From NCBI GenBank assembly GCA_005223125.1, contig NJBH01000004.1:1-64000 (forward strand): a DNA stretch of 64,000 bases, written 5' to 3'. The translations under genes and the position numbers were made by a program. This document shows positions 4,397 to 23,943 of the stretch, in pieces. The stretch is from Promethearchaeota archaeon Loki_b32. Lineage in GTDB: Archaea > Asgardarchaeota > Lokiarchaeia > Sigyniarchaeales > SOKP01. The notes under the pieces are model-generated. The model did no database searches and was not told the origin of the DNA. It saw nothing but the letters and a program-made list of their open reading frames with translations. Position 1 is the stretch's first letter. Every line of letters begins with the position of its first letter.

Positions 4397-4456
4397 ATTC
4401 TTTTACCTCTTAATTATAATTAAATTTATATATTTTAGAATTTTTTATATTCATAA

Positions 4457-4480
4457 TGAATAATTATTCAGAATTATTCA
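4457..4480. promoter_or_regulatory. Palindromic operator TGAATAATTATTCA plus extra half-site, in divergent promoter
   Basis: Perfect 14-bp palindrome at 4457-4470; recurs at 7367, 8017 and 10378. Confidence 0.7.
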
Positions 4481-4522
4481 AAATTTAAAAAAGTTACTAA
4501 AAAAAATATGGTGTAATAAAGA

Positions 4523-4966: not shown

Positions 4967-5004
4967 AAGCGCAAAGAGTTAATTAGAAAAGTAGGATATC
5001 TCTT

Positions 5005-5943
5005 ATGAGTAGCAAGAAGTCAAAAGTAATTTGTATTACAGGAGGTAAAGGGGGAACTGGTAAAACTTTATGTGCTGTTAATCTTGCTGTCATGTTCAAA
5101 AATGAAGGAAAGAAAGTTCTTCTTATAGATGGTGATGTAGAGAATCCTAATACATATTTATTATTAAATGGAAGTCTTGAAAATAAAAGAGATGTTCCAT
5201 TTTTCAAACCTAAAATTATTGAAAGTAAATGCTCTAAATGTGGATTATGTGCTCAAAATTGTGCGCCGCATGCTTTATTATACATAACGGATTCATTTCC
5301 CATTCCAATATTAGCCTTATGTTCTGGATGCCAATTATGTTATAAGATTTGTCCGGAAGAGGCAATTGAAACTGATTCAAAAGTAATAGGCTGGACTTAT
5401 TCGACAAAAGTAAACGGGATTTCTCTTTTAATTGGTGAATTGAAACCGGCAGAGGCTCGTTCGGCAGCAATTGTAGAAACGCTCCTCGAAGAACTTGACG
5501 AGATAATAAAAGGTGATCCGGATAGGTTCGATGTAGTCATTCTAGATACCTCTCCAGGGGCGCATTGTGATGTAGAAGCCTTAATCAATAAGGCCGATTT
5601 AGTAATTCCCGTTACAGAGCCAACTAGGTTTGGCAAGTTAGACTTGATCCGGATAATAGAACTAATTGAATTATTGAATAAAGATCATCGAGCTATTGTT
5701 AATAGATCTTCGTTATTGGGCTTCAGAGACGAATTCTTAAAGGATTTAAAAGAAAAGAATATAATGATTCTTGGCGACATTCCTTTAGATGACGACATCG
5801 TGCATTCTTATTGTATAGGCGTGCCTTTAATGGATGGAAATAGTGAAACCGACAAGAATGGAAAGGGGTATAAAGCATTTAAAAGGATATTTGAGAATTT
5901 AATCGAATGGATGGAAACTAAAGAACAAGGTGAGGGGAGCTAA
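5005..5943 (+). CDS. MinD-like P-loop ATPase with inserted 2x[4Fe-4S] domain (COG1149)
   Basis: GGKGGTGKT, DGDVENPN, CSKCGLC/CSGCQLC, VTEPT. Confidence 0.9.
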   Translation: MSSKKSKVICITGGKGGTGKTLCAVNLAVMFKNEGKKVLLIDGDVENPNTYLLLNGSLENKRDVPFFKPKIIESKCSKCGLCAQNCAPHALLYITDSFPIPILALCSGCQLCYKICPEEAIETDSKVIGWTYSTKVNGISLLIGELKPAEARSAAIVETLLEELDEIIKGDPDRFDVVILDTSPGAHCDVEALINKADLVIPVTEPTRFGKLDLIRIIELIELLNKDHRAIVNRSSLLGFRDEFLKDLKEKNIMILGDIPLDDDIVHSYCIGVPLMDGNSETDKNGKGYKAFKRIFENLIEWMETKEQGEGS

Positions 5944-6880
5944 AGTAATAGAGAAAAAGAATGTTGGAATCATTTCGGGGAAAGGTGGAGTAGGTAAAAC
6001 TTCTCTAGTTGCATCCTTGGTAAGCTTAGCCAATAAGGATCCGGATTTAAAAACAATCGTACTTGATTGTGATGTAGACGCTCCTAATCTCTCTTTAATA
6101 CTTCCGGCGATGGCTGAAGATGCAATAAAGAGTCAAGACATTTATGCTACTCTAAAAGCTACATTCCTCGAACAAAAATGTGTTAATTGTAAGAAATGCA
6201 TTGACGAGCATTTTTGTGAGTTTCACGCATTAGGATGGGACGATGATAATCAAGTTCCTGTAGTGGATTATTTAGCGTGTGAGGGATGTGGGGCTTGTAA
6301 GTTTTTATGTCCTGAACATGCCTTTGAAATAGATCCCATTAAAAGCGGAATTATCGTTTCTTACATTTCAGAGATGGGCTCACCGCTAGTTTATGGCAAG
6401 ACCATTTTAGGAAGCTCAACATCCGGAAAGTTAGTCTCGGATGTTAAAGAATTTGTGAAGAACTTAAAAGAATTCGAGGAAAGCAATTTAATATTAATAG
6501 ATGGCCCTCCAGGAATTGGCTGCCCCGTAATTGCGACCGTTTCAGGCTTGGATTATGTCATTACCATAACCGAACCTACTCCTTCTGGATTACACGACCT
6601 AATACGGGCGATAGAAGTCGTGCAGCAATTTAAAATTCCGTTTGGGATAATAATTAATAAATCTGATTTGAAAAGCCCTTTTCAAGATAAATTCAAGGAT
6701 TACATCGACAATACGGGGTTTAACATCTTAGGAAAAATTCCATTTGATTTATCGATCCCGAAAGCAATGTCTTTTGCTGAAACAGTTGTAGATTTTGCTC
6801 CAGATTCTAAAGCAAGTTTATCTATTAAAAAGATTTATCAAAATTTAAAAGAAATATTATGGAATAATACTTTAATTTGA
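5930..6880 (+). CDS. Second MinD-like P-loop ATPase with 4Fe-4S domain (COG1149)
   Basis: SGKGGVGKT, DCDVDAPN, CEGCGAC, DGPPGIGCP, TEPTPSG. Confidence 0.9.
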   Translation: MRGAKVIEKKNVGIISGKGGVGKTSLVASLVSLANKDPDLKTIVLDCDVDAPNLSLILPAMAEDAIKSQDIYATLKATFLEQKCVNCKKCIDEHFCEFHALGWDDDNQVPVVDYLACEGCGACKFLCPEHAFEIDPIKSGIIVSYISEMGSPLVYGKTILGSSTSGKLVSDVKEFVKNLKEFEESNLILIDGPPGIGCPVIATVSGLDYVITITEPTPSGLHDLIRAIEVVQQFKIPFGIIINKSDLKSPFQDKFKDYIDNTGFNILGKIPFDLSIPKAMSFAETVVDFAPDSKASLSIKKIYQNLKEILWNNTLI

Positions 6881-6903
6881 TCTTTTTATTATAAAATAAG
6901 AAT

Positions 6904-7323
6904 CTAAATGTATTCTCTAATAAGATGATATACGTTATTGGAATTACATTTAATACAATTAACCTTTCTCTCCCTAGATGCATCCGGATCTTCCCACTCG
7001 TGATTACAGTTATTACATCCATATCCCTTAAAGCTTAATTTAGTTTCGAAATTGCCACCATATATTAAAATTTTCTTTCCCTCAATTAAGGCTAAGGTAT
7101 TTTTTTGATGAGCACTTTCAAGAATTCTTGAAAATGTAGGTTGACTTACTCCCATTCTTTCAGCAGATTCTTTCTGATTCAAGCCTAAATAATGTTTTAA
7201 TCTCATAGCTTCATATTCAGCAACAGTTATTATTATCGAATCTTCGGTTTTAGGTGAATCTCCAGGGAAATAGATATTTTTAGGTGTTAGATTAACCCAT
7301 CGTCGATGTCTGTTTCTTCCTAT
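6904..7323 (-). CDS. DUF134 HTH protein with C-terminal Zn ribbon (probable ATA start at 7323)
   Basis: Frame extends upstream of the ORF call as IGRNRHRRWV…EYEAMRLK; GVSQPTFSRIL HTH; CNNC…CIKC; GGTGA RBS. Confidence 0.85.
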   Translation of the reverse strand: MGRNRHRRWVNLTPKNIYFPGDSPKTEDSIIITVAEYEAMRLKHYLGLNQKESAERMGVSQPTFSRILESAHQKNTLALIEGKKILIYGGNFETKLSFKGYGCNNCNHEWEDPDASRERKVNCIKCNSNNVYHLIREYI

Positions 7324-7366
7324 ATCGAATCACCAAAAGTATCATTAAAATTATAAAAAAACACTT

Positions 7367-7382
7367 ATTAATAATTATTCAT
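7367..7382. promoter_or_regulatory. Operator copy ATTAATAATTATTCAT upstream of DUF134 gene
   Basis: One mismatch to ATGAATAATTATTCAT. Confidence 0.6.
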
Positions 7383-7387
7383 AAATT

Positions 7388-7912
7388 TTAAACATTTTTT
7401 AGAATAGGGCGGAAACAAGTTAAAATAGTATTCATTTCCTTATCTACTTCTTCTAAGTACCATAATCCCCCGCCTTCTTCTTCATTACCATACCCCATAT
7501 CGACGTATTCTTTATCATCTAGACATCTATCATCAGCCATATCGGTTAGTTCATTGATTAATTTAAATTTTCTTATAAGATCCTTCTTTTCTTCACTATT
7601 AATGAATTCCTTAAAATCTTGTACTTTATTGTTAATTGCTTGGCGTTCTTCCACCCAGGTTTTATATTCATCTTCTGGAACCTCGTCTTTAAAAAATGAG
7701 AAAAGTATCTCATCCAATCCAAGGGAAGTCTTTCCTCTTACTTTCTCATTAAATACTTCATCTAAGTTAGTTTCTATTTCTATTAATACTTGGATGTAAC
7801 TGTCTACTAAAGAGAAGTCTTGGAATTCTGGATTGTCGTCATTCCTTATGGCGAATTTTAATAATTTTAAGAGAGTCGGATATTTTTTACTAATTCTATC
7901 TGATGGAAGCAT
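7388..7912 (-). CDS. Hypothetical acidic protein
   Basis: 174-aa ORF with protein-like composition; no family recognised. Confidence 0.6.
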   Translation of the reverse strand: MLPSDRISKKYPTLLKLLKFAIRNDDNPEFQDFSLVDSYIQVLIEIETNLDEVFNEKVRGKTSLGLDEILFSFFKDEVPEDEYKTWVEERQAINNKVQDFKEFINSEEKKDLIRKFKLINELTDMADDRCLDDKEYVDMGYGNEEEGGGLWYLEEVDKEMNTILTCFRPILKNV

Positions 7913-8016
7913 TATGTTTATAATTCAAAATTATTATTTCTATTATTGAAATGAAAACTTAAGTTTATAAAATTTCAGACTCCCTTACTTTGTAACAATT
8001 AAGTTTTTATGTTATT

Positions 8017-8032
8017 ATGAATAATTATTCAT
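8017..8032. promoter_or_regulatory. Perfect 16-bp operator ATGAATAATTATTCAT
   Basis: Exact palindrome upstream of nifX-like gene at 8098. Confidence 0.7.
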
Positions 8033-8097
8033 TAAATTTAAATTTTATAATTTCCTATAATATTATAATGTAATATAAAATAAAAATCATTAACAAG

Positions 8098-8511
8098 TTG
8101 AAAAGAATGAAAATAGCTATTAGTACAGAATCAGGAAATGTTTGCGCTCACTTTGGCCGAGCGCCAGAGTTTACTTTTGTTACAATTGAAGATAATCAAG
8201 TATTAAAAAAAGAAGTACTTCAAAACCCTGGACATTCTGTAGGGAGTATACCTCAGTTTGTAAATCAACAAGGAGCGAAATACATGATTGCGGGAGGTAT
8301 GGGACACAGAGCTGAAGCTTTTTTTAGTCAATATGGAATTGAAGTAATTGTAGGAATTTCCGGTAAAATTGATGATGTTATCAAAAAGATTCTAGACGGA
8401 ACTTTAGAAAGAGGAGAAAGTCTTTGCACTCCAGGTGGTGGTAAGGGATACGGTGTCGAAAAAATTCATACTGAAGCTGATGATAATCACGAGCATCATC
8501 ATCATGAATAA
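8098..8511 (+). CDS. NifB/NifX family protein with His-rich tail
   Basis: KIAIST…HFGRAP…GGMG; HEHHHHE C-terminus. Confidence 0.9.
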   Translation: MKRMKIAISTESGNVCAHFGRAPEFTFVTIEDNQVLKKEVLQNPGHSVGSIPQFVNQQGAKYMIAGGMGHRAEAFFSQYGIEVIVGISGKIDDVIKKILDGTLERGESLCTPGGGKGYGVEKIHTEADDNHEHHHHE

Positions 8512-8604
8512 AATTTGATTTATATTATAGATCTTTCCTAAAAATTAGAGTAGATTCATCCTTTCAGTTTTACAATGCTAAAACTTTATTTCCAGGCTAG
8601 CAAT

Positions 8605-8814
8605 CTAATAATGAAGATCTTCTTTTATATCATCATTAGGTAGCATATTATCTGGGTGATATTCTCCATTTTCTTCCATTTGATATCTAATACAATTTTT
8701 ATTCCCAATTAAACAATAATTCTCAACCCATTTTGTGTCAAGTTTATCATGATCAATAAAATACTTAATTGGGCAAGTGTAATACCATTTATATGTTTTA
8801 TTTTTAGGTTTCAA
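8605..8814 (-). CDS. Small Cys-containing hypothetical protein
   Basis: KWYYTCP…YC…CIRYQMEENGEYHPDNMLP pattern looks conserved. Confidence 0.6.
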   Translation of the reverse strand: MKPKNKTYKWYYTCPIKYFIDHDKLDTKWVENYCLIGNKNCIRYQMEENGEYHPDNMLPNDDIKEDLHY

Positions 8815-8875
8815 TTTTACTAACAGTCCTTAACCTAGTTTGATTATAGTTATGATAAATAGAATAATAATTTTG

Positions 8876-9315
8876 TTAACTAGTATTGCTATTGATAATT
8901 TCAGGTAATATTGCATTATTCGGACAGTTTTTAAAGTATTTTAAGCATTTGAAACATTTTGGAAGATTCTCTTTATGAAATTCGATAAATTCGTCCCCTG
9001 TTTTTTCATCTTGTTTAAGTCTAAAGATGTTTTGAAAATAAAATTTCTCTTCTAAGCAGAGTTTACATAAATTGCATTTTTCTTGATCAATGCAAAAACC
9101 CATCAATTTTACTTCATTAATCGAGATAACCTCAATAGCTCCATGCTCACATACATCCACACATTTTAAGCATCCTTGACACTTATCGTAATCTACATAT
9201 CGAAGTGAATTTTTAAAAAAAATAGCTTTATTTGGACAGCTATACATGCATCGCTGACATAATACGCATAAATTTGGATTTATATATATATAGGAAATAG
9301 TTTCTCCTTTTCCAT
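8876..9315 (-). pseudogene. Polyferredoxin-like 4Fe-4S protein, frameshifted in a (TA)n tract
   Basis: ATG at 9315 (MEKEKLFP) is out of frame with NPNLCVLCQRCMYSCP by one extra TA at 9281-9292; two C-terminal Cys positions read Tyr. Confidence 0.7.
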
Positions 9316-9383
9316 GATAATTTCTGGTGATATTAATGAATTTAAAGAATAAATTTCAAGTTAAAAAAAAATAATAATAAAAT

Positions 9384-9884
9384 TTATTTTCTAATCTGTA
9401 CTTTAGGTTGAATTGAAGAAGCTCCGCCAAAATTAGTAATTACAGGGCAATGGGTAAATATTTTATCCATTAATTCATTAATTTTTTCTTCTGGAGCATC
9501 AGCTTTAATTCTGATAACAGGTTCTAATTTATCATAACCAGCTAATTTTGAGTCATCAATTCCAAAAATAGCTCCTAAATTGATATGACCACGCGAAAAA
9601 ACTTTCATTTCTTCAATTTTAATGTCCATAATTTTAGCCCAGAATCTTGTAACCGCAATAATACAAGCTCCAATAGAGGATAAGATAACTAATAATGGTG
9701 ATGGTCCTTCATTTGTTCCATCTAAACCAAGAGGTGCGTCAATTATTAATTCAAATGGTTTTGCTCCCATGGTACATTTAACTTGCATACCATCAGATAA
9801 CATTTCACATTCAACGTTAAAATTTTTCTCTCCAGCATTCCAGTCTGCCTTAATGGCATCATAAGTTTCTTTAAAACTTGGCAT
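9384..9884 (-). CDS. OsmC family protein
   Basis: DAP..LDG…GPSP…GAC and HCPV motifs. Confidence 0.88.
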   Translation of the reverse strand: MPSFKETYDAIKADWNAGEKNFNVECEMLSDGMQVKCTMGAKPFELIIDAPLGLDGTNEGPSPLLVILSSIGACIIAVTRFWAKIMDIKIEEMKVFSRGHINLGAIFGIDDSKLAGYDKLEPVIRIKADAPEEKINELMDKIFTHCPVITNFGGASSIQPKVQIRK

Positions 9885-9925
9885 TTATACTCTCCTATTT
9901 TGGTAAATTTTAATTCTTGCTTATT

Positions 9926-10321
9926 TTAATGAGCGTGAGCATGTTCTGAGTTACTAGCACAGCTAGCATTGTTTAAAGATGTTAATTGGCCGTCTAATAA
10001 CATTCTTACATTTTTTTCAATGCTTCCATTGATACCTTGAAATAAATTTATGTTAACTTGTTGAAAACCCATAAATGGACGCATACCAATACCAGTTAAA
10101 ATCATATCACTAACATTTCTTTGTTTCATGTTTAGAACAGGTTCCATACAACCTGAATGACCACTATTAGGTAATGCAAAAACTTGCTTGAATTTATTAC
10201 CATCATAAATTTCAATTCCAATGAAATAGTTACAATGTCCAAAATGAGGTGATATATTATCAGATATTTCAGGTCCATCAGAGGGAATTCCAATTATTCG
10301 ATTCATATGTCTTACACTCAT
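9926..10321 (-). CDS. NifB/NifX family protein
   Basis: IGIPS…HFGHCNYF…GIGMRP; HAHAH tail. Confidence 0.88.
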   Translation of the reverse strand: MSVRHMNRIIGIPSDGPEISDNISPHFGHCNYFIGIEIYDGNKFKQVFALPNSGHSGCMEPVLNMKQRNVSDMILTGIGMRPFMGFQQVNINLFQGINGSIEKNVRMLLDGQLTSLNNASCASNSEHAHAH

Positions 10322-10642: not shown

Positions 10643-11947
10643 TTAATGAGTTGCACAGGATATACAAGGGTCAAATGCCCTAATAATCATCTGAATTTTC
10701 TTTTTAACTAAATTTATATCTCCTGTTCTTTCAAATAATTCTTGAGCATATTTTGTAATCATATCGTTAATAAGTGAGAGATTAAACTCAGTAGCAATGA
10801 ATAGATTTATTCGATCAACGTAATTACTTTTATTAAGGTGATAATGATGTATTAAAACCCCTCTAGGGGCCTCAATAACACCTATTCCATCCAAGTTTTT
10901 TATTGAATTCAGAGAGGGAAGTTTTTCTCTTATATTTAAAGATGGATTATCTAAAATTTGTAATCCTTGATAAGATTCAATATACATTTCTAATAATCTT
11001 ATAAAATTAGTAAATAATATATTGTTTTTCCATGATTTATTAAAGTAGTCAAGATAAGTGGGAATTTCATCAATTCCATAATTCTCAACAATATTAAAGC
11101 GTGAAAAAGGGCCAACAATCACATTTTTTTCATTTTCGAAATAAAAATCAATTCCACGTAAATTAATCTCTTTTCCAAAATATGTAGAATAATTTTGTTT
11201 TTCAAATTCTATAAAGTTTTTATTGTTTTCTTTAAATCTTAAAGAACCAGAATATCGATCATAATTTCCATAATTAGTTAGAGCAAGAGAAATAAATTTT
11301 GGAAGATCAAATTCTTTTGGAGGAGTCTGATTTGCAAATAATTGAATAAATTTTTCTATAATCCATTCTAAAATAACTAAAGCTTTTTGAAAATATTTTC
11401 GAGCTAATGTAATACTTTTTCGAGAAGGAGAATAAATAACACCTCCAGGAACAAGTGAAATCAAATGAACAGATCTACCACCAAATAATTCATTTATTTC
11501 ATTTCCAACTTTAATTAAATCATATAAACTAGTTGTTAATTGAGGATAATATTTGATTAATTCATAAGGAGAAAAAGTCTTTTGGCTAAGATTAAAAATT
11601 GTTAAAAGATCTGGTAGAGTCTGGAAAAAAAAATTCATAGAATGAGATTTAATTAATTCAGCACTCATTAAAAGGCGTCTTAAAAGAATATTATGTTCTG
11701 AAACTTCGATATTATAAATATCTTCTATTGTTTTACAACTAGCGATTGTTTGAGAAGCATAACATAATCCGCATATTCGAGATATAATTTTTGGAATATC
11801 AAATAGATTTTTACCGATTAAGAAATTTTCAAATCCTCGATATATCTCAAATTCTAAATTTACTGATAAAACTTCATCATTCTGAAGTAAGATTCTTACT
11901 TCTCCGTGACCCTCAACACGTTTACAAACATCAACAACTTTTAACAA
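10643..11947 (-). CDS. mvhA: [NiFe]-hydrogenase large subunit, group 3 (MvhA-like), with no C-terminal extension
   Basis: RVEGHG, RICGLCYASQ (L1), EAPRG, DPCISCATH immediately followed by TAA. Confidence 0.9.
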   Translation of the reverse strand: MLKVVDVCKRVEGHGEVRILLQNDEVLSVNLEFEIYRGFENFLIGKNLFDIPKIISRICGLCYASQTIASCKTIEDIYNIEVSEHNILLRRLLMSAELIKSHSMNFFFQTLPDLLTIFNLSQKTFSPYELIKYYPQLTTSLYDLIKVGNEINELFGGRSVHLISLVPGGVIYSPSRKSITLARKYFQKALVILEWIIEKFIQLFANQTPPKEFDLPKFISLALTNYGNYDRYSGSLRFKENNKNFIEFEKQNYSTYFGKEINLRGIDFYFENEKNVIVGPFSRFNIVENYGIDEIPTYLDYFNKSWKNNILFTNFIRLLEMYIESYQGLQILDNPSLNIREKLPSLNSIKNLDGIGVIEAPRGVLIHHYHLNKSNYVDRINLFIATEFNLSLINDMITKYAQELFERTGDINLVKKKIQMIIRAFDPCISCATH

Positions 11948-11952
11948 TCTTT

Positions 11953-12711
11953 TTACCTTTTCATTTTTGGTTTTGAGAATCGATAAAAAATACCAGTATA
12001 ATCCTTTAATTCTTGAGATAATTCTATCAAGCTCAAAAAATTTATAACATTAGAAGTAAAATCTTTTGATACAGGACCCATACATCCCTCACAAGGAAGC
12101 CCCATTTTTATACATTTATGTTCACATCCATCACGAGTTATTGGTCCTAAACATAAAATACCTTTTTTTAAAAAACATTCAGAATTTTCTTCGTTTAGAC
12201 TAATTTCTTCTGGATTAGGATTGATTTTGGTGATATTTATTTGAAAATTAATTTCCATTTTTTCCCATATTGGACAATTGGCGCACATATTTTTTTCGGA
12301 TAAGGTTATATCTTTATTCTCAACCAACCTAATTACACTGTTTCCAAAAAGCTTAGAGGGCGGGGGACAGCCAGGAATAATACCATCAACTTCAATATAA
12401 TTAGAGAGTGGTTCTGCTATTTTTGAATTTGAAAGGCTAAGAATTCCTCCAAAACAAGCGCAGGTTCCTAAAGCAAATACTTTTTTTGCGTGTCTTCGAA
12501 CTTTTCTAAGGAGTATTATTTGTGTTTCTTCAGAAACACAGCCTTCTACTAATGCTATTTCACATTCTTTAATATCTTTTGCATCTGAAATAAATGGAAA
12601 ATAAATTATTCTTGTTCTTTCAAGAAATTGTGGAAAAATGTCTAAAGACATAAGAGTTGATATACACCCAGTACATGAAGTTAGAGAAATTAATATAAAT
12701 CTAGGCTTCAA
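11953..12711 (-). CDS. mvhG: [NiFe]-hydrogenase small subunit (MvhG-like); probable TTG start at 12711
   Basis: SCTGC, GTCACFGG, PGCPP, CLGPITRDGC…CEGCMGP; GGAGG RBS before TTG. Confidence 0.88.
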   Translation of the reverse strand: MKPRFILISLTSCTGCISTLMSLDIFPQFLERTRIIYFPFISDAKDIKECEIALVEGCVSEETQIILLRKVRRHAKKVFALGTCACFGGILSLSNSKIAEPLSNYIEVDGIIPGCPPPSKLFGNSVIRLVENKDITLSEKNMCANCPIWEKMEINFQINITKINPNPEEISLNEENSECFLKKGILCLGPITRDGCEHKCIKMGLPCEGCMGPVSKDFTSNVINFLSLIELSQELKDYTGIFYRFSKPKMKR

Positions 12712-15250
12712 ATTTAATTTCCTCCAATAGTTGATTATAGAATTTATTAGAAATTTCAGCAAATTTATTACCCTCAACAGCATTCAAATGTTCAAGAATT
12801 ATTCGATCTTTATATTTAGGTGATATAATATTCTTTAATAATCTGATTTTATTTTCTACTTTTTTAATTCCATCAATATATCGACAAGCATCTTGTCTAC
12901 AACCAATTATCATTACTCCGTCGAAACCGAGTTCAAATGATTTAATAATAAAGCTAGTGTCAATGCGCCCTGTACAAGGCACCCTGACAATAAAAATATT
13001 TGGATTATAAGAGATCTTCTTGAGTCCGGCATTATCAGCGGCAGCATATCCACAAGAGGCACAGCAGAAGGCAATAATTTTTGGATGTGTTCTGAATTTC
13101 GAAAAAATTTCAATTGTTGCTAGAATCTTTTCAGAAGTGTCTATGTTTAAATCTATTGCATTAGTAGGACAAACACTAGCACAAGTACCGCAACCCTTAC
13201 ATTTGAATTTATCTATACTAACTTTATCTGATTCTATTATAATAGCATTATAAGGACAAATCTTTAAGCACAGACCACATAAGCCACATCTGTTTTCATC
13301 AATCTCTATTCCTGTAAACTCTGCTATCAAATAATTCTTAGAAAGTAATGCAATGATTTTTAATGCAATATTATTAGTTGTTGATATTGTAGAATTATAA
13401 TCTAATGGGCCAAAGATTGTCCCAACTCCATAAATTCCAGAAGCTAATGTTTCTTCACTCATAAATCCATTGTCATCTAATGTAAAATCCATAAATTTTC
13501 GAAGATTTTTTAGATCTTTATTTGGGACATATTTTAGACTTAATACAATCAAATCACTTGGAAATTCAATATTATCAGCAATAATATAATTTTGATCTTT
13601 ATTAGATTCAATAGTAATTTTGTTGGCATATATAAATCTGGGATTAGTTGATCTTAACAAAATCTCATCCTTATCCTTTAATCTACTTAAATCATAAAAA
13701 ACATTGACTTCACAATCAAGATTTCTTATTTTAATATCCTCAATATATTTTTCTGCCAAATTTTCAGAGTAATCAGCAAGATATTTCGATGGGCCAACTT
13801 CTTGGATAATGGAAATCGTATTTATGGGTATTTTATCTGATAATCTTAAAAGCTTTCCTTCAGTTAAACCGTCAGAAGATAAAATCCGCTCAAATTCAGG
13901 TGAAGTTATTATATTTTTTTTGGGATTATAATGATAATCCTCTAAATCTCCGGAAAAATCGGATCCAATAGCAATAACTTTAGTACCAACCTTAATCTCA
14001 ATCCTTTCTTCTTTTTGAGTTAAATCTATTGCTTTATTCACGCACGCACGTTCACAAATTCTACAATTAAGGCAATTCTTTAAATCTTCTTCATCAATTA
14101 AAGGAATATAAGGATAGGAATGCATAAATGGAATATATATGATTTTTCGATTAATTAGACCAAATTCATATTGATTTGGTTTTTCTATACTACAAACTTC
14201 TATACATTGTTTACATCCTGTACATTTTTTCATATCGACATAACGAGGTTTTTTAACCATATTAATTGTAAAATTTCCTACTTCTCCTGATACATTTTCA
14301 ACTTCAGTATTAGTAAAAAAACTTATATTTTTTTCATTCGCTAACTCACTTATTAATTCTGAAATGAAACATATTGAACAATCACCCATATTATGGATTC
14401 TATGCCATCTGGCTACCTTACCTCCCAATGTTGGTGATTTATCAATGAGATATACTTTTATTCCAGCTCGCGCTAAATTTAAAGCAAGGGTTATACCTGC
14501 AATTCCCCCACCTAAAATTGCACAACTCTTTTCTACCTCAACTCTCTTCACTTTTACTTTTTTTTGAAGATTTACTCGTTCAACAGCGGCTTCAATTAAT
14601 AATTTAGTCTTTTCTAATGAAAGTGAAGGATCTATTTGATTCATTTTAAATTGATGTACCCAGCAACATTGTTCTCTAATGTTAGCTATTTCTATATTTG
14701 TACGATCTATAATATCCTCAAAAATTCGTTCAAAAAGAAGTTGGTGTGTTTTTGGAGAACAAGCTGCTATTACTATTTTATTCAAAAAATTGTCTTTAAC
14801 CCAATTACATATTTTTTCAAAATTCTTTTGTTGACAGAGATTTTCAAAAATCTTTACCGAAACTACTTTTCTTAACTTATTCATATAATTTCCAAGTGCA
14901 GTTATATCAATTACACTTGAAATTTCTGTATTACAATTACAAATAATTACTCCAATCCGGCTTATTTCACTTCCCTTATAGTCTAAATACTCATCAATAT
15001 CTTCTCCCGATAAAATTCTTTTGTTAAGATTAAGTATTTTAAGTACGCGTTTGCCTTCTTCTGTAAGAAAATACGATTTTTTGTCTTTCCTTATTAATGA
15101 GTCGATCTTTTTAAGATGAAAATTTAGTTGTCCAGTTGTTTCTAGACCAAGTTTTTCCATTAAATCAGTATAATGAAGATAACCCTCTCTTTCTAAAAGA
15201 AGTAAAATTTTTCTCCTAAATGGATGAGACAATATTGAATATATGTCCAT
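12701..15250 (-). CDS. Fusion protein: ArsR-like winged HTH + HdrA-like flavo-Fe-S + MvhD domain
   Basis: LSHPFRRKILLLL…TGQLNFHLKK…YFLTEEG wHTH; CNC/AACSP/NIREQC HdrA N-domain; GGGIAG; ferredoxin motifs; C-terminal AFCCASCGYAAAD…RVPCTGRID MvhD. Confidence 0.88.
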   Translation of the reverse strand: MDIYSILSHPFRRKILLLLEREGYLHYTDLMEKLGLETTGQLNFHLKKIDSLIRKDKKSYFLTEEGKRVLKILNLNKRILSGEDIDEYLDYKGSEISRIGVIICNCNTEISSVIDITALGNYMNKLRKVVSVKIFENLCQQKNFEKICNWVKDNFLNKIVIAACSPKTHQLLFERIFEDIIDRTNIEIANIREQCCWVHQFKMNQIDPSLSLEKTKLLIEAAVERVNLQKKVKVKRVEVEKSCAILGGGIAGITLALNLARAGIKVYLIDKSPTLGGKVARWHRIHNMGDCSICFISELISELANEKNISFFTNTEVENVSGEVGNFTINMVKKPRYVDMKKCTGCKQCIEVCSIEKPNQYEFGLINRKIIYIPFMHSYPYIPLIDEEDLKNCLNCRICERACVNKAIDLTQKEERIEIKVGTKVIAIGSDFSGDLEDYHYNPKKNIITSPEFERILSSDGLTEGKLLRLSDKIPINTISIIQEVGPSKYLADYSENLAEKYIEDIKIRNLDCEVNVFYDLSRLKDKDEILLRSTNPRFIYANKITIESNKDQNYIIADNIEFPSDLIVLSLKYVPNKDLKNLRKFMDFTLDDNGFMSEETLASGIYGVGTIFGPLDYNSTISTTNNIALKIIALLSKNYLIAEFTGIEIDENRCGLCGLCLKICPYNAIIIESDKVSIDKFKCKGCGTCASVCPTNAIDLNIDTSEKILATIEIFSKFRTHPKIIAFCCASCGYAAADNAGLKKISYNPNIFIVRVPCTGRIDTSFIIKSFELGFDGVMIIGCRQDACRYIDGIKKVENKIRLLKNIISPKYKDRIILEHLNAVEGNKFAEISNKFYNQLLEEIKFEA

Positions 15251-15312
15251 TATTTAAATCCCTCCTTTTTTTTCCTAATTTCAAACAAAATTTTTTAAAA
15301 CTAAAACAAAAA

Positions 15313-16458
15313 TTATTCTTCATTTACTACTGAAGTCATTGATGACGATTTCCATACTATCAATTTATTCTTCATATTTTTTTCTGTTCGTTTTATTTTT
15401 GATTGAGAGAATTGGGTAATTTTTTCCATCATTTCCTTTTTGTCATTTACATCCAATTTTAAACATTTAATTACACCTGCGTTTAGTGCTTTATTGACTA
15501 TATCTTTTCCTTTTTTTGTACGAGTGATAACAGTTGTAAATTTATCAGGGGAGCCTAACCCTCCAAAGGAAATATCTGCATAAATATTAGTAAAATCTTT
15601 GCAAACCGCGCAAGCTTGACGCACATAATCATTTAATCTCTTAAAAGGTATATGAATAGTACTATTATCTTTTAAATTAACAATTAAATCTTCCTTAATG
15701 TTTATTCTTTTAATATTTTTGAATTTTAGTTTAAAATCTTTTTCAAATTTCTCAACCTTTTTATTATCAAAAAAAAAATTCTCATAACAAAATAATCCTA
15801 AACAAAATTCTATATTCTCAGATGGAATGATACCTAAGTTTTGCATACATCTAATTGTGTAAATTTGACAAGGTGTTCCTATTAATGCCAATTTCTTAAA
15901 TTTGTACTGCTTTAATTTGGGTAATGAACTTGTATATGTATGAAATTTCTGTACAGTTTCTAATTGGGGAGATGTATCTAACTTGACACCTGAAGCGCTA
16001 ATTAAATCTTCTCTACTTTTAGCTATTATACCCTCTCTAGAGAAAGGTGATTTTGTTTTTGCAACAATTGCTCCATCAATCACTTTTTTATCTATTAAAT
16101 AATTAATTATTGAGTTTACAACCCCGCCGTCTGTACCAAAATTTAAGAATTCACTATCTATAGCTTGGCAAGAGTAAATTGCTTCTACAAACCCTAAAGG
16201 CATCGATAAAAAATCTGAAAAAGTATAAGATTTATTGAGATCCTCGTCTAAAACATGTGTTTGTGGACAAATGAAATAACAAATCCCACACTCAAGGCAT
16301 TTTTCCTTATTTAAATATTCTGGAGGAGAATTAGGTTTTTTAAATCCAATTACATCATTTTCTATTGAATTACAAAAACTTACACAACCACCACACTCTT
16401 GACAAATACCAGGTTCATGGACTTCTTCAATTAAATCCTTAAAAGTTTTTATACTCAT
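15313..16458 (-). CDS. FrhB/FdhB-family F420-binding flavoprotein with N-terminal 2x[4Fe-4S]
   Basis: CQECGGC, CLECGIC, DGGVV, GTPCQI, GLFCYENF, CAVCKDF…ADISFG. Confidence 0.88.
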   Translation of the reverse strand: MSIKTFKDLIEEVHEPGICQECGGCVSFCNSIENDVIGFKKPNSPPEYLNKEKCLECGICYFICPQTHVLDEDLNKSYTFSDFLSMPLGFVEAIYSCQAIDSEFLNFGTDGGVVNSIINYLIDKKVIDGAIVAKTKSPFSREGIIAKSREDLISASGVKLDTSPQLETVQKFHTYTSSLPKLKQYKFKKLALIGTPCQIYTIRCMQNLGIIPSENIEFCLGLFCYENFFFDNKKVEKFEKDFKLKFKNIKRINIKEDLIVNLKDNSTIHIPFKRLNDYVRQACAVCKDFTNIYADISFGGLGSPDKFTTVITRTKKGKDIVNKALNAGVIKCLKLDVNDKKEMMEKITQFSQSKIKRTEKNMKNKLIVWKSSSMTSVVNEE

Positions 16459-16532
16459 GCTTAAAAATCACCAATTTATATTTACAATCTTAAAAGTTAT
16501 TATGACTATTTTGACAATATTTATGATCTCTA

Positions 16533-16550
16533 TGATAAATATAATTGTCA
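16533..16550. promoter_or_regulatory. Operator TGATAA-N6-TTGTCA
   Basis: Imperfect palindrome; same motif at 16702, 25886 and 25993. Confidence 0.6.
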
Positions 16551-16701
16551 AAATATATAAATATGATCCTTTTTGTATATTATGTGACTATAAGTAATAA
16601 TAAGAAATGATGGATAATTGCATCAAGTATTAGATAAATGATAGATATTATATTGGAGAATGATCATGGAAAGATCAGACTCGCTCATTAAATAAACAAA
16701 A

Positions 16702-16783
16702 TGATAAAAAATTTTGTCAAAATAACTATAATTTATCTTATCAGATTTTTTAAATTTCTCTTAGCTTATTATTTAATCGGAAA
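16702..16783 (+). promoter_or_regulatory. Operator TGATAA-N6-TTGTCA + TATA (TTTAAATT, 16749) promoter of Sec-hdrA
   Basis: Aligns without gaps to 25993-26073. Confidence 0.65.
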
Positions 16784-16898
16784 AGTTCATTACAGAGTAA
16801 TATTAATTACATTTTTGTAAATTTTACACTTTTTTCCAAAAAAAAAATAAATTTTTTCTTTTAAGAATAAATTGGTGATGTTTAACTAGGTGGATTAA

Positions 16899-18935
16899 AT
16901 GTCTGAAAATCAGACCAATGTTAGGATTGGAGTATATATCTGTAGATGAGGAATTAATATTAGTGCTAGCATCGATTGTGATCTTATTAGAGATTATGTT
17001 GAGGCACTCCAAGATATTATTGTTGCTAGAGTAAATGATTTTACTTGTAGTGATCCGGGACAAAATATCATCAAAAACGATATTTTAGATTTAGATTTAA
17101 ATCGTGTAGTTGTTGCAGCTTGTACACCAAAAATTCATGAATCCACATACCGAACAGTTTTAACTGAAGCAGGATTAAACCCATATTACTTTCAGATGGT
17201 TAATCTTCGCGAGCATTGCTCATTCATTCACTCGGGTGATAAGAGAAGTACTACTGAAAAAGCTATAAGGTTAGTGCAAGCAGGGATAAATCGTGCGAGA
17301 CAATTAGAAATTATACCTCATAAAAAAATTTCAGTGGAAAAATCTGTATTAATTATTGGTGCTGGAATTGCAGGGATGAATGCTGCATTAGATTTAGCAA
17401 ATCAAGGAATAATTGTATATTTGGTCGAAATAGAAGCCACAATTGGTGGAAAAATGGCACAATTAGATCGAATTTATCCTACAGACGATTGTGCTATATG
17501 AGTTCTAGCACCTATTATGGTTAGTGCTTCAAAACACCCAAATATAACATTATTTACTTATAGTGATATTATTGGATTTAGTGGTATCCCTGGTAATTAT
17601 AATGTTAAAATATGTAAAAATCCCCGGTATATTGATGAAAAAAAGTGTACTGGTTGTGGATTATGTACGACAAAATGTCCAATAACAGTACCTAACGAAT
17701 TCAACAGATGTATTGGCGAACGGAACGCAATTTATATACCCTTTTCCCAAGCGGTACCTAAAATTGCGTTAATTGAAAAGAGTATCTGCATAGAATGTAA
17801 AAATTGTCAAAAAATTTGTCCAGCAGAGGCTATTGACTTTGAACAAGTCTCAGAATATGTTGATTTAAAAGTTGGTGCAGTAATTATCGCTACAGGATGG
17901 GATGAATATCCAATTATGAAAAATAACGAATATAAATATGGTATTTATCCTGATGTTATTACTCAAATAGAGTTAGAACGTATATTGAGTCCAGTTGGGC
18001 CAACAGGGGGTCACTTATATAGAATTTCTGATGGAAAACCCCCAAAAACATTAGCTATGATTCAATGTGTTGGTTCAAGATCCTTAAAAGGTAATCCCTA
18101 TTGCTCTGGAGTATGTTGTAATGTTGCACTTAAAAACGCTCAGTTGTTAAAACAAGAATATCCTGACATGGACATTGCTATTTTTTATATAGATATGCGA
18201 ACGTGGGATAAAGGAAATGAAGAATATTATAGAAAAGCGAGAGAAGCGGGTATAATGATGATTCGGGGAAAAGTTGGAGATATCCGAGTAGATCCTGATA
18301 CACTAAAAATAAAAGTTACAGCTGATTCAACTTTAACAAATGATTTCATAACAATGAATACCGATTTAGTTGTATTATCAACAGGCATGGTTCCTTCTAA
18401 AAATACAGCACAAATTGTTGAGACTTTAGGTTTAAGTAAAGATATAAATGGGTTTTTAACTGAAGTTCATGGGTGTCTAAAACCTCAAGAGACAAATAAT
18501 TTTGGCATATATATATGTGGCTGTGCTGCTGGACCTAAAAATATTCCTTATTCAGTATCGACAGCTTTAGCTGCAGCAAGTAAAGTATCTACTTTACTTT
18601 CTAAAGATACAATTACTCAAGAATTAATCATTGCTGAAGTAAATGAAACTCTATGTATTGGTTGCCATAGATGTGAAAAACTCTGCAATTATAAGGCAAT
18701 AAAAGTTAATGGAGAGAATATAGCTGAAGTAGACGACTTAAAATGTAAAGGTTGCGGAGTTTGTGTATCATCATGCCCCGCTCGAGCAATTGATCTTAAA
18801 TATTATAGAGATAAACAAATTATTGAAGAGATAAAAGGGATTTGTAGTACTGAACTTGAATATAAGGAAGAATATATTGAATCTATTGAACTTATTTGGA
18901 AAAAGATTGAAGCATTAGCTCCTCATCAAACATAA
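16899..18935 (+). CDS. hdrA: Heterodisulfide reductase subunit A, 678 aa, with two in-frame UGA (probable selenocysteines U17, U201)
   Basis: AGGTGG RBS, ATG 16899; one frame through TGA 16947 (IGVYICR-U-GINI, paralogues CHCG/CQCG) and TGA 17499 (PTDDCAI-U-VLAP, paralogues PTLDCSLCILAP); joins ORFs 17196 and 17517. Confidence 0.85.
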
Positions 18936-19154: not shown

Positions 19155-20264
19155 TTATTTCTTGTTTTTTAAAGAAATTAATTTATTATACCAATCGAAT
19201 TTCTTATTCTTCCACTCAATAGTGTGTGGACCAATAAATTGCTCAATTATGCCTTTTGAAAGCATATTATTTATTACTTTTTCACCATTATCAGTTCTAA
19301 TTAGTATCATCGAATATCCTTCTGGAGCTCCAGATGCTCCAACACTAATATCTGTAAATCTTCCTGTGAATTCATCACATTCATGGCAACTATTTCTAAC
19401 TGCGGGATCTAGAGTTTTGATATCGATTTCAAATTCTTTATTATCTTTGGTTTGGATAAAGAAATTCTTTTTTATCCATGTTTTCTTGATTTTAGTAGGA
19501 TCAACTTTGGTTTCTCTCTTTAAAATATCATACAATTGATTATAAATAAAATTCTCAAAACAAAAAAGACCTATAATGTATTTAATGACATGAGCTGGTT
19601 TAACATGCAAAAATTTCATTTTACTGACAGCCTTACATTGGCAAGGAGTTCCAATAAATGCCATTCTTAGCTGGTCAATATCAAATATCTCCTTTTTCAT
19701 AAGAATCTTTTGCGATATGTTGTATAAATTTTTTAAAGGGAATATTTGAGAAGAAATAGAATAGCGTGTACCTGCTGATTTAAATAAATTTTCTTTATCA
19801 AATATAATTTTTGGAACAGGTTCAAAATTATCGTCAAATTCTGAAACAATAGCTGCATCAATTTTATGTTTTTCAAATAAATATGTTAGAATTGCTGAAA
19901 CTACCCCTCCATCTTGTCCAACTTTTTCTAATGCCGCGTTTGTTGTTTTAGCAGCAAGAATTTTAACGATATGTCCAATATTATCTTCAATATAATAAGT
20001 ATCCTTTAATTCTTTTAATAATGCTTTAGTTTGAGGACAAATGTAATAACAAACACCACATTTAGTACAATTATCAACACTTTTTTCTGATTTAAAGCCA
20101 GGATTATATCCATTCATCTCAATAACATTAAAACCTTGACATTCGCAATATGCTATGCAAGCTCCACAAGCACAGCATTTATTACTTTTAATTATTTCAT
20201 TTTCAAGGTCTTCAAATGTTTTTACTTCATTTTGCAAAAGTTTCTGAGAATCTGATTCAGTCAT
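19155..20264 (-). CDS. FrhB/FdhB-family F420-binding protein with 2x[4Fe-4S]
   Basis: CCACGAC, CTKCGVC, GQDGGVV, GTPCQ, GLFCFENF, CHECDEF. Confidence 0.88.
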   Translation of the reverse strand: MTESDSQKLLQNEVKTFEDLENEIIKSNKCCACGACIAYCECQGFNVIEMNGYNPGFKSEKSVDNCTKCGVCYYICPQTKALLKELKDTYYIEDNIGHIVKILAAKTTNAALEKVGQDGGVVSAILTYLFEKHKIDAAIVSEFDDNFEPVPKIIFDKENLFKSAGTRYSISSQIFPLKNLYNISQKILMKKEIFDIDQLRMAFIGTPCQCKAVSKMKFLHVKPAHVIKYIIGLFCFENFIYNQLYDILKRETKVDPTKIKKTWIKKNFFIQTKDNKEFEIDIKTLDPAVRNSCHECDEFTGRFTDISVGASGAPEGYSMILIRTDNGEKVINNMLSKGIIEQFIGPHTIEWKNKKFDWYNKLISLKNKK

Positions 20265-20279
20265 TATAATTCTCTCTTT

Positions 20280-20756
20280 TTATTTCTTTGTACAATTATA
20301 TTCTAATTCAAATATTCCTGATTTTTTAGGGATTTTTAATTCTCCAAATTCTATAATTTTCTTTGTAAAATCTTTAATTAACTCTGAAAATTGTTTTCCC
20401 TCACTTGCAGAAATTGAGTGTAATTGAAATCGATCTGCTTCAATTCCAATATATCTTATTAAATTCTTTAAATGAACCATTCTTACTTGAGTATATTCGA
20501 ATCCTTTCATATAATGACAATCACCCATATGGCATCCAATAATTAGCACTCCATCTATTCCATTATTAAAAGCTCGTAGAACAAATGTTGGATCAACCCT
20601 GCTAGAACACATTACCCTAATAATCCTAATATTCGGGGGATATTGGAATCTAGAAACACCTGCTAAGTCTGCACCCGCATAACTACACCAATTACAGCAA
20701 AAAACTAAAATATTTGGTTCAAATTCACTTTTTACCTTTTTTTTAATTTTTAACAG
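20280..20756 (-). CDS. mvhD: MvhD/FlpD [2Fe-2S] subunit (start uncertain; CTG at 20756 follows GGGGGG RBS)
   Basis: [19 protein letters not shown]…RVMCSSRVD…GCHMGDCHY. Confidence 0.9.
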   Translation of the reverse strand: MLKIKKKVKSEFEPNILVFCCNWCSYAGADLAGVSRFQYPPNIRIIRVMCSSRVDPTFVLRAFNNGIDGVLIIGCHMGDCHYMKGFEYTQVRMVHLKNLIRYIGIEADRFQLHSISASEGKQFSELIKDFTKKIIEFGELKIPKKSGIFELEYNCTKK

Positions 20757-20772
20757 TATTAATCCCCCCAAA

Positions 20773-23700
20773 TTAAACAATTTCATAATCCATTGCATCT
20801 AAGCTTGGTAATAAATCAATCATTTTGTTAATTTGAAATTTACTAAAATGATTTTGATCAATAGCCCCAACTGAGCATTCAACAATGCAAGCTCCACAAC
20901 CTTTACAAACAGCATTAATTACACGAGCCTTTCTCACGGATATATTATATAAACCCATTTCTTTATAAATTTCAACCAATTCAATAGCGTTATAAGGGCA
21001 AATCTCAATACATTTACCGCATCCTATACATTTTTCTTCATTTATATAAGAAGTTATACATTCAGTTTCTATTTCCCCTTTAGCCATTATTATTGCCGCT
21101 CTTCCAGCAGCACCATAAGCTTGAGTGATAGTTTCACCTATCCATTTCGGCCAATGAGCTCCTCCACATAGGAAAATTCCTTCTGTTGCAAAGTCTATTG
21201 GCCTAAGTTTTGCATCAGCTTCTAAGAAAAAGCCATTTGTATTTGTTGATACTTTTAACAATTTTGCTAATTGTTCAGTATCATCAACAGGAACTTTAGG
21301 AGTAGCTAATATTAATAAATCAGTATTATATTCAATATTTATTTGAGCCCCAACATTATAATATACGATATGGAAATTATCATTTTCATCACAGATTTTG
21401 ATATCATCAATTGAACGATATCTTTCATATGTAACTTTTTTTCGAAGCCTTCGCCATAGATTTTCAGCATTTAAATCTGAGAATTGAAACTCTCTATATA
21501 AAATATGAATATGTGCATTATGGTTTATATTTAATAATTTTTCAATATTCTTTAATGCTACACCACAACAGATATTTGAGCAATAAGTTTTTATATTATC
21601 TCCCGTATTAAATTCGTTTCTTCTTTGATCTACGCATAGTATTATTGTAGCATCTTTAAATTCAGGAACATCTGCATCTTTCATCTCAGTTAATTCTGTT
21701 TGTGTGAGTAGACGTTTAGGATATCTTTCCGATAAATTTACCCACCTGCTTGTTTTTATTTGCTTAGTTCCCGTAGCCACTATTATTGTACCCACATTGA
21801 ATGTTTTATTTTTTGAATTATCATGAATATTCTTAACTTTAACTTGGTAATTTCCAACATAACCTTGAATATCATCTATAACTGAATTTAATAAAATATG
21901 AACATTGGATTTGTTTTTCAAATCTTTAATTTCCTTTAAAATTTCATTTTTCGTAATAGGTATATAATATAAATCAATAAATTCAAGTGCGACACCTCCA
22001 AGAAAAGATTTCTTATCTACAAGATAAATCTCAAATCCTTGATTTGCCAAATTATATGCAGCAGTTATCCCTGCTATTCCACCACCAATTATTAGAGTTG
22101 ACTTCTCAACTTTTACTTTAATGGTTTCTAATGGTTTTAAATTAATTACCTTTGCTAAATACATCCTTATTAAATCACATGCTTTTTTAGTAGCCTTTTT
22201 AGGTTCATTTTGATGAACCCAAGAATCTTGGTTTCTTATGTTTACTAGTTCAAATAAAAATGGATTTAATCCAGCTTCTCTTAGAGTATTTTTAAAAAGC
22301 TGTTCATGAGTTCGCGGGGTACAAGAAGCAACTATAAATCTATTAAGATTGTATTTTATGATTAGTTCTTTAATCCGTTCTTGGGAATCAGAACTACATG
22401 AATACATGTTTTCTTCAACATGGACAACATATGGCAATTTAGAAACATAATCTACTACTTCGGAAACATTAACAATACCTCCGATATTAATACCACACTG
22501 ACAAATTAAAATACCTACACGAGGTTCATCCTCCAGTTTTACTGGTATTTCTGGAGGATATTTCAATTTTTTTATATTTTGAAATCTAACATGATATAAT
22601 ATTTCGCTAATTTTAGCAGCACATGCAGAACCTTCAGCAACTGCCATTTGAATATCATTGGGTTTTCTAGAATAACCAGTTACGAATATATTCTTTTTTT
22701 CAAGTAAAATTATATCTGTTTCATGAATATAACCTAAATTGTTACAACCCACGTTAAGTTTTCTTAAAAGCTCATGATAAGAGGGAGGTGGAGATAATGC
22801 ACTAGCTAATATAGCCATATCCGCTTCAAAAGTTCCAACTTTTCCTTTATCAATATCTTCATAATATAATTTTAATTTTCCGTTATCTAAATTTTCTTTG
22901 ATATATGAAACATGACCATTCACATATTTAACATTATATTCATTCTTACTTTTTTCAATAAATTCATAAAAGTTCTTACCTTTAGCTCTGACTTCTGTAT
23001 TAAAAATATAACAGTCAATGCTTGGATCATGTTCTTTAACAACAATTGCTTCTTTAGCTGAATTCATACAACATATGGCAGAACAATATTTTTTACATTC
23101 AGGATGATGAACGTCTCGAGACCCAACACATTGTATAAAAGCAATTGAATGAGGATGTTTTTTATCATCTAATCTTATGATTTGACCACCAGTAGGTCCA
23201 TTTGCAGATAAAAGACGTTCAAATTGCATACTAGAAAAAACATTCGGGGAAGAGCCAGCAAAAGAATCATATACGTCTGGCATTTCTTGGATATATCCTG
23301 TAGCAATAACAATAGCCCCTACTTTTAAATCTATTTCTTCTGGTTTTTGTAAAAAATCTATTGCTTCTGGTTTACAAGCTTTAGCACAAAGTCCACATAT
23401 TCTATAATTTAAATATAAACATTTTGATTCTTCAATGAGATATATTGGGGGTACTGATGATGGAAAAGGCATATATATGGCGCCTCGAGTTTTTAAATGA
23501 GTATCAAATTCGCTAGGAATTCCTCTAACTGGACAAATCTCGCCACAATCTCCACATCCTTTACAGAGGTCTTCTTTTATATATCTTGGCTTTCTTATAA
23601 TTGTTATTGTGTAATCACCAGCAGATCCTCTAATATTTTTAACATTAGAATAAGTAAATAACTCAATATTTGGATTTCTATATATATCAACCATTTTTGG

Positions 23701-23886: not shown

Positions 23887-23943
23887 TTATCACAGCTATT
23901 GAAAACATTTATTAACTTTATATCCCAATTTTGTAAGATTAAT

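Follow-up and report, generated by a model that had tools for sequence, protein, structure and literature searches.

A putative hydrogenase-wired transcription regulator built on an HdrA scaffold in Asgard archaea

To our knowledge, the [NiFe] hydrogen sensors characterised so far are group 2 enzymes of bacteria and signal via a kinase. The present work concerns a 64,000 nt stretch (the window) of contig NJBH01000004.1 from Promethearchaeota archaeon Loki_b32 (Lokiarchaeia, assembly GCA_005223125.1). At positions 10643-16458 it encodes an FrhB-like protein, a fusion of a winged helix-turn-helix domain (wHTH) with HdrA and MvhD, and the small and large subunits of a [NiFe] hydrogenase; the last three genes are referred to as the cassette. 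Judging from protein and promoter sequences, the fusion complex is very probably a DNA-binding regulator. The fuller reading, a one-component regulator wired to a hydrogenase and responding to H2, is favoured with less confidence.

The MvhAGD-HdrABC complex (PDB 5ODC) and the Elp-Hdr complex (PMC12350162) contain the same modules in the same order along the electron path (large subunit, small subunit, MvhD, HdrA; E 9e-104 to HdrA of 5ODC), and the combination of FrhB-like protein, MvhD and HdrA recalls ElpBC. In comparison with MvhAGD-HdrABC, the cassette has an N-terminal wHTH and a fused HdrA-MvhD, the ligands of cluster HA4 are lost in the family of the window genome (the window family), hdrB and hdrC are missing from the operon, and the large subunit, which has a short C-terminal extension or none, falls on a separate branch. 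By its sequence, the cassette is built like MvhAGD-HdrA, but the window protein falls outside that family on two of its defining features. The regulatory hydrogenases of group 2b (HoxBC-HoxJ-HoxA, HupUV) resemble it in presumed purpose and in having Gln for His, no extension and a coexisting catalytic hydrogenase. In contrast, the cassette enzyme belongs to group 3; in place of a kinase and a response regulator, the same complex carries a DNA-binding domain as its putative output, and the genes predicted to be controlled are mtd and hdr genes rather than those of the catalytic hydrogenase. SurR of the Thermococcales is a small protein with a cysteine switch for sulfur, and contains no flavin, clusters or hydrogenase. 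It is comparable as an archaeal redox-switched regulator that recognizes a gapped palindrome and activates or represses depending on position (PMC6316755, PMC5937170). The Group C sensory [FeFe] hydrogenases (PMC11216029) are likewise joined to a signalling module, but they are putative sensors that carry PAS domains, lack HdrA and do not bind DNA directly.

The gene cluster itself is known. Seitz et al. (2019, PMC6478937) described the same three-gene cassette on Helarchaeota contig NODE_147 (7209 nt) as a possible membrane energy-transfer complex; this contig corresponds to our locus L070 (G237:C43, 7209 nt, same three genes, from a Helarchaeota-labelled cluster). Zhao and Biddle (2021, PMC9723726) assigned the hydrogenase to group 3b, as a divergent type that Lokiarchaeota share. 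The cultured MK-D1 reportedly has a group 3c enzyme only. Neither account, in its available portion, mentions a wHTH, an operator, cofactor loss or a regulatory role. Groups 3e-3l of Asgard archaea (Appler et al., 10.1101/2024.07.04.601786) are new group 3 branches named by phylogeny, with function and gene context absent from the main text; the cassette clade may be one of them and was not matched to a name. Literature searches, in which subscription papers were mostly outside coverage, yielded no HdrA-HTH fusion, HdrA-based transcription factor, group 3 sensor or archaeal one-component H2 sensor. The original prediction, made from the window sequence, had stated that no described system of the kind was known to its author. 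This holds for the regulator, which is not previously described in the searched literature, but not for the gene cluster, published in 2019 as an energy complex.

The four predicted open reading frames were all found in place on the minus strand. The FrhB/FpoF-like gene (15313-16458; Pfam FrhB N and C) is followed after 62 nt by the fusion gene (12701-15250), whose 849-residue product comprises a DUF7347 wHTH (residues 2-71), HdrA (95-715) and FlpD/MvhD (725-841). The gene for the small subunit (11953-12711; Oxidored_q6, three complete cluster motifs) most likely starts at 12711, giving 252 residues as in the orthologues and a start 11 nt inside the 3' end of the fusion gene. A gap of 5 nt separates it from the gene for the 434-residue large subunit (10643-11947), and the tight or overlapping junctions noted for the last three genes were confirmed. 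A 7412-nt contig of another study covers 10659-18070, including the operon and the intergenic region, with 87 differences and 0 gaps. Homologues of 69-100% identity nearly all have the full architecture (120 among the matches listed). The gap-free separate contig, the shared architecture and the occurrence of the fusion in many genomes rule out an assembly chimera, the objection raised in advance against the proposal. Decaying pseudogenes are ruled out by ratios of nonsynonymous to synonymous substitution (dN/dS) of 0.07-0.22 across all parts.

The fusion was present in 70 of 301 Asgard genomes, nearly always as a single copy; these span seven families, Lokiarchaeia, Helarchaeales, Jordarchaeia and Thorarchaeia among them. 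Of the 70 genomes, 69 also encode a matching large subunit; in the remaining one the contig breaks off within the fusion gene. The anticipated co-occurrence was therefore borne out for the fusion and the hydrogenase, but the extension-less large subunit specified for it proved to be a derived state of the window family only. The order fusion, small subunit, large subunit is constant in about 60 loci. Additional members were recovered with a profile search; four out of four with enough upstream DNA sit behind the same fusion. One of these members belongs to a genome labelled Bathyarchaeia; among 401 genomes of its class, a cassette-sized match was obtained only there, the other matches resembling ordinary longer subunits that were not inspected singly. 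The system is real, intact, conserved and widespread. On the other hand, frhB lies upstream of the fusion only in the window genus and is absent in several close relatives; in two loci it is placed after the divergent hdrA gene on the opposite strand, and in one locus it is split. It is missing from most lineages. The FrhB-like protein was therefore rejected as a core subunit, is not supported as a core F420 input, and is regarded as an accessory mostly limited to the window genus.

The N-terminal domain of the fusion (residues 1-76; 15023-15250, minus strand) is an ArsR-like winged helix (DUF7347, Pfam E 1e-10), with a profile match to the ArsR-like protein 1y0u of A. fulgidus (E 1.7e-6). It is conserved to 0.76, close to the 0.77 of the flavin adenine dinucleotide (FAD) domain, with a dN/dS of 0.115, and purifying selection acts on all parts of the protein. 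In the AlphaFold model (mean predicted local distance difference test score 84) the wHTH is carried on a flexible linker (residues 86-95), and the best structural matches were HdrA chains. The protein has what is expected of an archaeal one-component wHTH factor, a conserved wHTH joined to a sensing domain, together with a palindrome, as predicted sites, at its own and its target promoters.

This palindrome, TGAYAA-N6-TTRTCA (18 bp), is common to the upstream regions of the cassettes. With at most one mismatch it was found upstream of 48 of 60 cassette operons, as compared with 0.7 in shuffles and with a spacer of 6 only, although these counts come from related genomes and from the very upstream regions out of which the motif was derived. 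The repeated operators noticed in the intergenic region are thus real and far above chance. Because of the origin of the motif, held-out testing was carried out with a site matrix built from other genomes, and the top three sites in the 4.1-Mb genome were those at 16533, 16702 and 25886. Of the strong sites in the 951 kb of loci, a single one fell within a gene. Sites also preceded genes outside the training set, namely X and X-mtd (described below) and hdrD-like genes. In later-found loci (the Bathyarchaeia cassette and two related ones) they lay upstream of either the fusion or X-mtd.

The positions of the sites relative to the predicted TATA boxes fall into two arrangements. Operator O1 (16533-16550), the best site in the genome, begins 3 nt downstream of the predicted TATA box of the cassette operon (16554-16561, minus strand), a repressor position, with a weaker tandem site beside it (16512-16529). 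The same spacing recurs in related loci: in 22 out of 47, all of them from the window family, the site starts 3 nt after the TATA box of the cassette. Operator O2 (16702-16719), the second-best site, is followed by a conserved half-site (16738-16743) and, 29 nt after O2, by the predicted TATA box of the divergent hdrA gene (16749-16756, plus strand), with a pyrimidine-rich B recognition element (BRE) position, an activator geometry. Operator O3 (25886-25903), ranked third and outside the training set, precedes X/X-mtd, as does the weaker O4 (25993-26010), located 29 nt before the TATA box of that operon (26040-26047). In 30 site-target pairs the TATA box begins 29 nt after the site, with a second, conserved half-site and a pyrimidine-rich BRE position in between. 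These two geometries match the positions described for archaeal repressor and activator sites (PMC5937170).

Exact matches of the palindrome in the whole genome were at background (7, versus 9 for the reversed control). A global regulon is thus unsupported and the regulon should be small; for the same reason, a phylum-wide count of the pattern is uninformative. The catalytic Vhu operon was ruled out as a target, since no site was found there. Family f18 keeps the wHTH, and no substitute palindrome was detected in it. A link between residue 27 of the wHTH and the presence of the motif was dropped because degenerate sites are visible in two Sigynarchaeota-like loci. A second candidate binder, an FrhB/FpoF-like protein with a C-terminal wHTH (28869-30305, minus strand; TrmB match at residues 363-426), was ruled out by its distribution: it was not found in f21, f9, f14, f3 and the Bathyarchaeia genome, where the site is present, and it was found in f18, where the site is missing. 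This protein, patchy in family f1, is a second fusion of a redox module with an HTH and possibly an F420-responsive regulator.

The predicted conserved target is the X/X-mtd operon, and not the hdrA gene of the window. It consists of a stand-alone X-domain protein of 216 residues without Pfam family (26152-26802, plus strand) and of a 561-residue fusion of X with an MtdA/B-like, NAD(P)-type methylene-tetrahydromethanopterin (methylene-H4MPT) dehydrogenase (26802-28487, plus strand), the most conserved predicted target. The pair is the most constant neighbour of the cassette. In Jordarchaeia and most genera of Lokiarchaeia the two are divergent, in Thorarchaeia and f14 the pair comes immediately downstream, and in the window 10 kb lie between them. 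X-mtd occurred in 71 of 75 genomes with a cassette hydrogenase, a count inflated by physical linkage and kinship; the four exceptions are the f18 genomes, which also lack the motif. The X domain (about 215-240 residues) was found alone, fused to Mtd or, in several genera, split from it. A further copy on C64 (G000:C64:4080-6384) is followed by NfnA/B-like genes, with no operator found, and a likeness of the domain to TraB/GumN (0.83) is a lead only.

The hdrA gene divergent from the cassette (16899-18935, plus strand), described at first as catalytic-looking, is present as a single frame of 678 codons with two UGA codons, at 16947 and 17499. These codons (17 and 201) stand at Cys positions, codon 17 lying within the N-terminal cluster motif, so that the product would be a selenoprotein (Sec-HdrA); its HA4 ligands are intact. 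The 3' untranslated region folds into hairpins, a canonical selenocysteine insertion sequence not being established. Selenocysteine-containing HdrA is already known in Asgard archaea. Like frhB, Sec-hdrA is a local addition outside the conserved three-gene core, and is considered a predicted local target.

The large subunit has the features of a functional [NiFe] enzyme, including two CxxC motifs, the proton-transfer Glu (Glu12) and the canopy Arg (in EAPRG), with small-subunit clusters and genomic hyp genes. The four metal-binding Cys are invariant across the cassette clade, and most members retain the Glu and Arg. This subunit is the fastest-evolving part of the core (dN/dS 0.22). Its best PDB matches were HydL (7T2R) and MvhA (5ODC), and all best matches belong to group 3, none to group 2. 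In trees obtained with FastTree and a small IQ-TREE run, 22 cassette large subunits fell on one side of a branch with a Shimodaira-Hasegawa-like approximate likelihood ratio of 99 (unrooted, references unnamed). This branch is separate from the group holding the VhuA of the genome and from a second, shorter group 3 group. The subunit had been named MvhA, but it is not nested among the sampled group 3c MvhA; by sequence, the cassette hydrogenase is its own group 3 branch.

In the window protein and family f1, the His after L1 is replaced by Gln and the C-terminal extension is missing, the chain ending at the L2 His. Helarchaeales and Sigynarchaeota-like copies have the Gln without loss of the extension, and most deeper members show neither trait. 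Both are traits of regulatory hydrogenases (PMC5665086, PMC7294309), and their sharing with group 2b is convergent. No kinase gene is present in the window cassette; only in a few loci of the window genus is the large subunit followed by a gene for a membrane-bound histidine kinase (L087:5559-6620; L051:14680-15756). Exactly one other group 1-3 large subunit is encoded in the genome, a split VhuA/VhuU selenoenzyme on contig C41 beside hdrCB and hyp genes. This cluster (C41:14432-18751) contains a 437-residue small subunit, split VhuA, a short selenocysteine-containing VhuU with extension, hdrC and hdrB, with hypD, E and F upstream. The catalytic role is therefore already filled by a separate Vhu-Hdr system. 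The statement that hdrB/C are lacking is correct for the operon, but an HdrD-like Fe-S and CCG gene is present at 23944-25200, besides hdrCB on C41.

Between the active site and the flavin, every cofactor motif via MvhD to FAD is kept in the three co-inherited genes. The MvhD domain (12716-13093, minus strand) has the FlpD-type [2Fe-2S] ligands of group 3c (Cys 730, 733, 759, 784 and 789, all invariant), and the HdrA N-terminal cluster domain (14546-14965, minus strand) has invariant Cys104, 106, 139 and 164. The FAD site is complete, with an invariant GGG loop (247-252), Glu454 and Lys501, a Glu/Lys pair whose role was reportedly established by Wagner in 2017, and both ferredoxin domains are fully kept. 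At residues 483-501 (13748-13804, minus strand) lies a degenerate Cys motif which we take to be the HA4 site; all four Cys are lost in the window protein, Lys501 being invariant. The ligands of HA4, a cluster next to the flavin, are intact in f9, f14, f18 and Bathyarchaeia-type copies, and eroded in Jordarchaeia and most of f1. In described HdrA proteins, the mobile arm consists of the domains at the N- and C-terminus and MvhD, and HA4 is the high-potential exit to HdrC/B (PMC12350162). HdrA is an obligate dimer via Cys197 (PMC9012536), whose equivalent in the fusion, the cross-subunit ligand Cys294, is invariant.

The proposal that an Mvh-HdrA scaffold serves as a one-component regulator is supported by the conserved wHTH, the palindrome at fixed positions from the TATA box and the dedicated hydrogenase; the FrhB input and hdrA as a conserved target were given up. 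The predicted system would be a soluble hydrogenase-HdrA complex acting as a transcription factor. The hydrogenase would dock on the MvhD domain as in MvhAGD-HdrA, and H2 would set the redox state of the FAD and the clusters. Since HA4 is lost in the window family, no outlet to HdrBC would exist there and the flavin would be a gauge, not a bifurcating catalyst. The invariance of Cys294 suggests a dimeric fusion, of which the two wHTH domains would read both halves of the palindrome. They are attached to the start of the HdrA mobile arm, part of which is the N-terminal cluster domain; rotation of the arm may move both, switching DNA binding or contact with transcription factor B. The bound complex would repress its own operon, where the site lies just downstream of the TATA box, and activate X/X-mtd and Sec-hdrA, where it lies 29 nt upstream of a TATA box with a poor BRE. 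As a result, the methylene-H4MPT step and Hdr modules would be tuned to the H2 level.

Several observations weigh against this hydrogen-sensing reading, besides the circularity, kinship and linkage that affect the operator and X-mtd counts. The sensor-like traits are not ancestral but derived in the window family only; Thorarchaeia, f14, f18 and Bathyarchaeia members keep the His, an extension of 3-12 residues and all HA4 ligands. The Gln of HoxC has been reported as dispensable for H2 sensing, and the extension is also missing in group 4 enzymes. The lack of an operator at the catalytic Vhu operon is unlike the HoxBC regulon. Finally, in some Thorarchaeia the large subunit has lost the catalytic Glu as well as the AP of APRG, so that activating H2 may be dispensable. 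In L060, L061 and L063 the four Cys are kept and these residues are gone, a possible pseudo-hydrogenase.

A redox regulator whose main input is not H2 is considered rather unlikely. In that case, ferredoxin, F420 or another carrier would reduce HdrA via its ferredoxin domains, and the hydrogenase would be a slow resetting drain, a scaffold, or a gauge of nickel or maturation. The full retention of both ferredoxin domains, the fast evolution of the large subunit, the loss of catalytic residues in Thorarchaeia and the gathering of FrhB-type genes around the cassette in the window genus are all consistent with such an input. On the other side are the clade-wide invariance of the metal Cys (with Glu and Arg in most members), the presence of the hydrogenase genes next to the fusion on every contig of sufficient length, and the replacement of His by Gln at the very position of the sensory hydrogenases. 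A trigger enzyme, that is, a working electron-bifurcating Mvh-Hdr that also regulates partner genes with flux as the signal, appears improbable, and would be likelier for the deeper members with intact HA4. It would account for the invariant FAD loop and Glu454/Lys501, for the intact HA4 ligands and divergent hdrCB neighbours in the Bathyarchaeia locus and f18, and for sites at hdrD-like genes in five loci. It fits poorly with the loss of all four HA4 ligands in the window protein and with a genome holding more than 10 HdrA paralogues and a normal Vhu-hdrCB cluster; moreover, the operator position predicts self-repression, and therefore low abundance.

That the palindrome is read by another factor, the wHTH being structural or binding elsewhere, is highly improbable. 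Further redox proteins nearby bear HTH-like domains, and f18 has the wHTH and no site. Nevertheless, the site accompanies the cassette across Asgard classes and Bathyarchaeia, whatever the neighbours, and the FrhB-wHTH protein has the wrong distribution. The membrane-associated energy-transfer complex that Seitz et al. (2019) proposed for the copy in Helarchaeota is hardly credible here and was rejected. The published transmembrane predictions (PMC6478937) speak for it, but the most hydrophobic 19-mers (at most 1.74 on the Kyte-Doolittle scale) are cofactor-binding segments, namely the glycine loop of the FAD site and a strand that binds a cluster; soluble paralogues gave maxima of 1.63-1.95, and a membrane control 2.69. 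The predicted model has a soluble HdrA fold, Zhao and Biddle (2021) judged the complex probably not membrane-bound, and a membrane role leaves the wHTH and the palindrome unexplained.

Other genes were noted around the cassettes. In the window, an operon at 19155-25200 (minus strand) comprises hdrD-like, double hdrA, mvhD and frhB-like genes without hydrogenase, recalling the F420H2-fed Elp-Hdr; in five loci, orthologues of its hdrD have an operator about 300 nt upstream. More hdrA/hdrD repeats lie at 58955-64000 and past it. A 638-residue protein with MvhD, HTH, ferredoxin and FrhB parts is encoded downstream of X-mtd at L037:1401-3317, with kin of 627-638 residues in L038, L040 and L044. By eye, genus g4 and its relatives have a CDC48/VAT-like AAA ATPase gene downstream of X-mtd in the same orientation (L081:3698-5962; L091:428-2710). 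A gene for 340-360 residues without Pfam match, the N-terminus of which looks longin/uDENN-like by eye, follows the large subunit at L081:13294-14352 and in other g4, g6 and g7 loci, and is also found at 46348-47397 of the window. In family f18 (L056-L059), which lacks the L2 His and the operator, the cassette comes after an FwdB-like molybdopterin gene, opposite hdrA/hdrCB-like genes, and G050 carries two copies. At 3524-10321 of the window, Mrp/ParA-type Fe-S ATPases, three NifB/NifX-like proteins, a DUF134-like HTH and an OsmC-like gene were recognized by eye; this cluster adjoins the cassette in some close relatives and may serve cofactor assembly.

If the proposed hydrogen-sensing regulator is correct, a hydrogenase complex would report the hydrogen or redox state straight to transcription in many Asgard archaea. 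The annotation of the cassette would shift from a divergent group 3b energy enzyme or a membrane energy complex to a probably regulatory system, for which protein, 18-bp site and target promoters are all named and open to testing. There is an even chance that a H2 sensor was here made from a bifurcating machine, with a group 3 hydrogenase feeding a dead-ended HdrA flavin, as a third independent route to H2 sensing. The arm rotation that gates bifurcation would be reused to move two winged helices. The family may, or equally may not, preserve the steps from enzyme to sensor, with the HA4 ligands, the His and the extension lost in turn. For the chemistry of bifurcation, the window family offers an HdrA from which evolution has removed the high-potential exit. 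The DNA-bound complex would set the methyl branch of the Wood-Ljungdahl pathway by the H2 level, that is, by the removal of H2 by a syntrophic partner, and H2 sensing in Asgard archaea bears on syntrophy and on models of the origin of eukaryotes.

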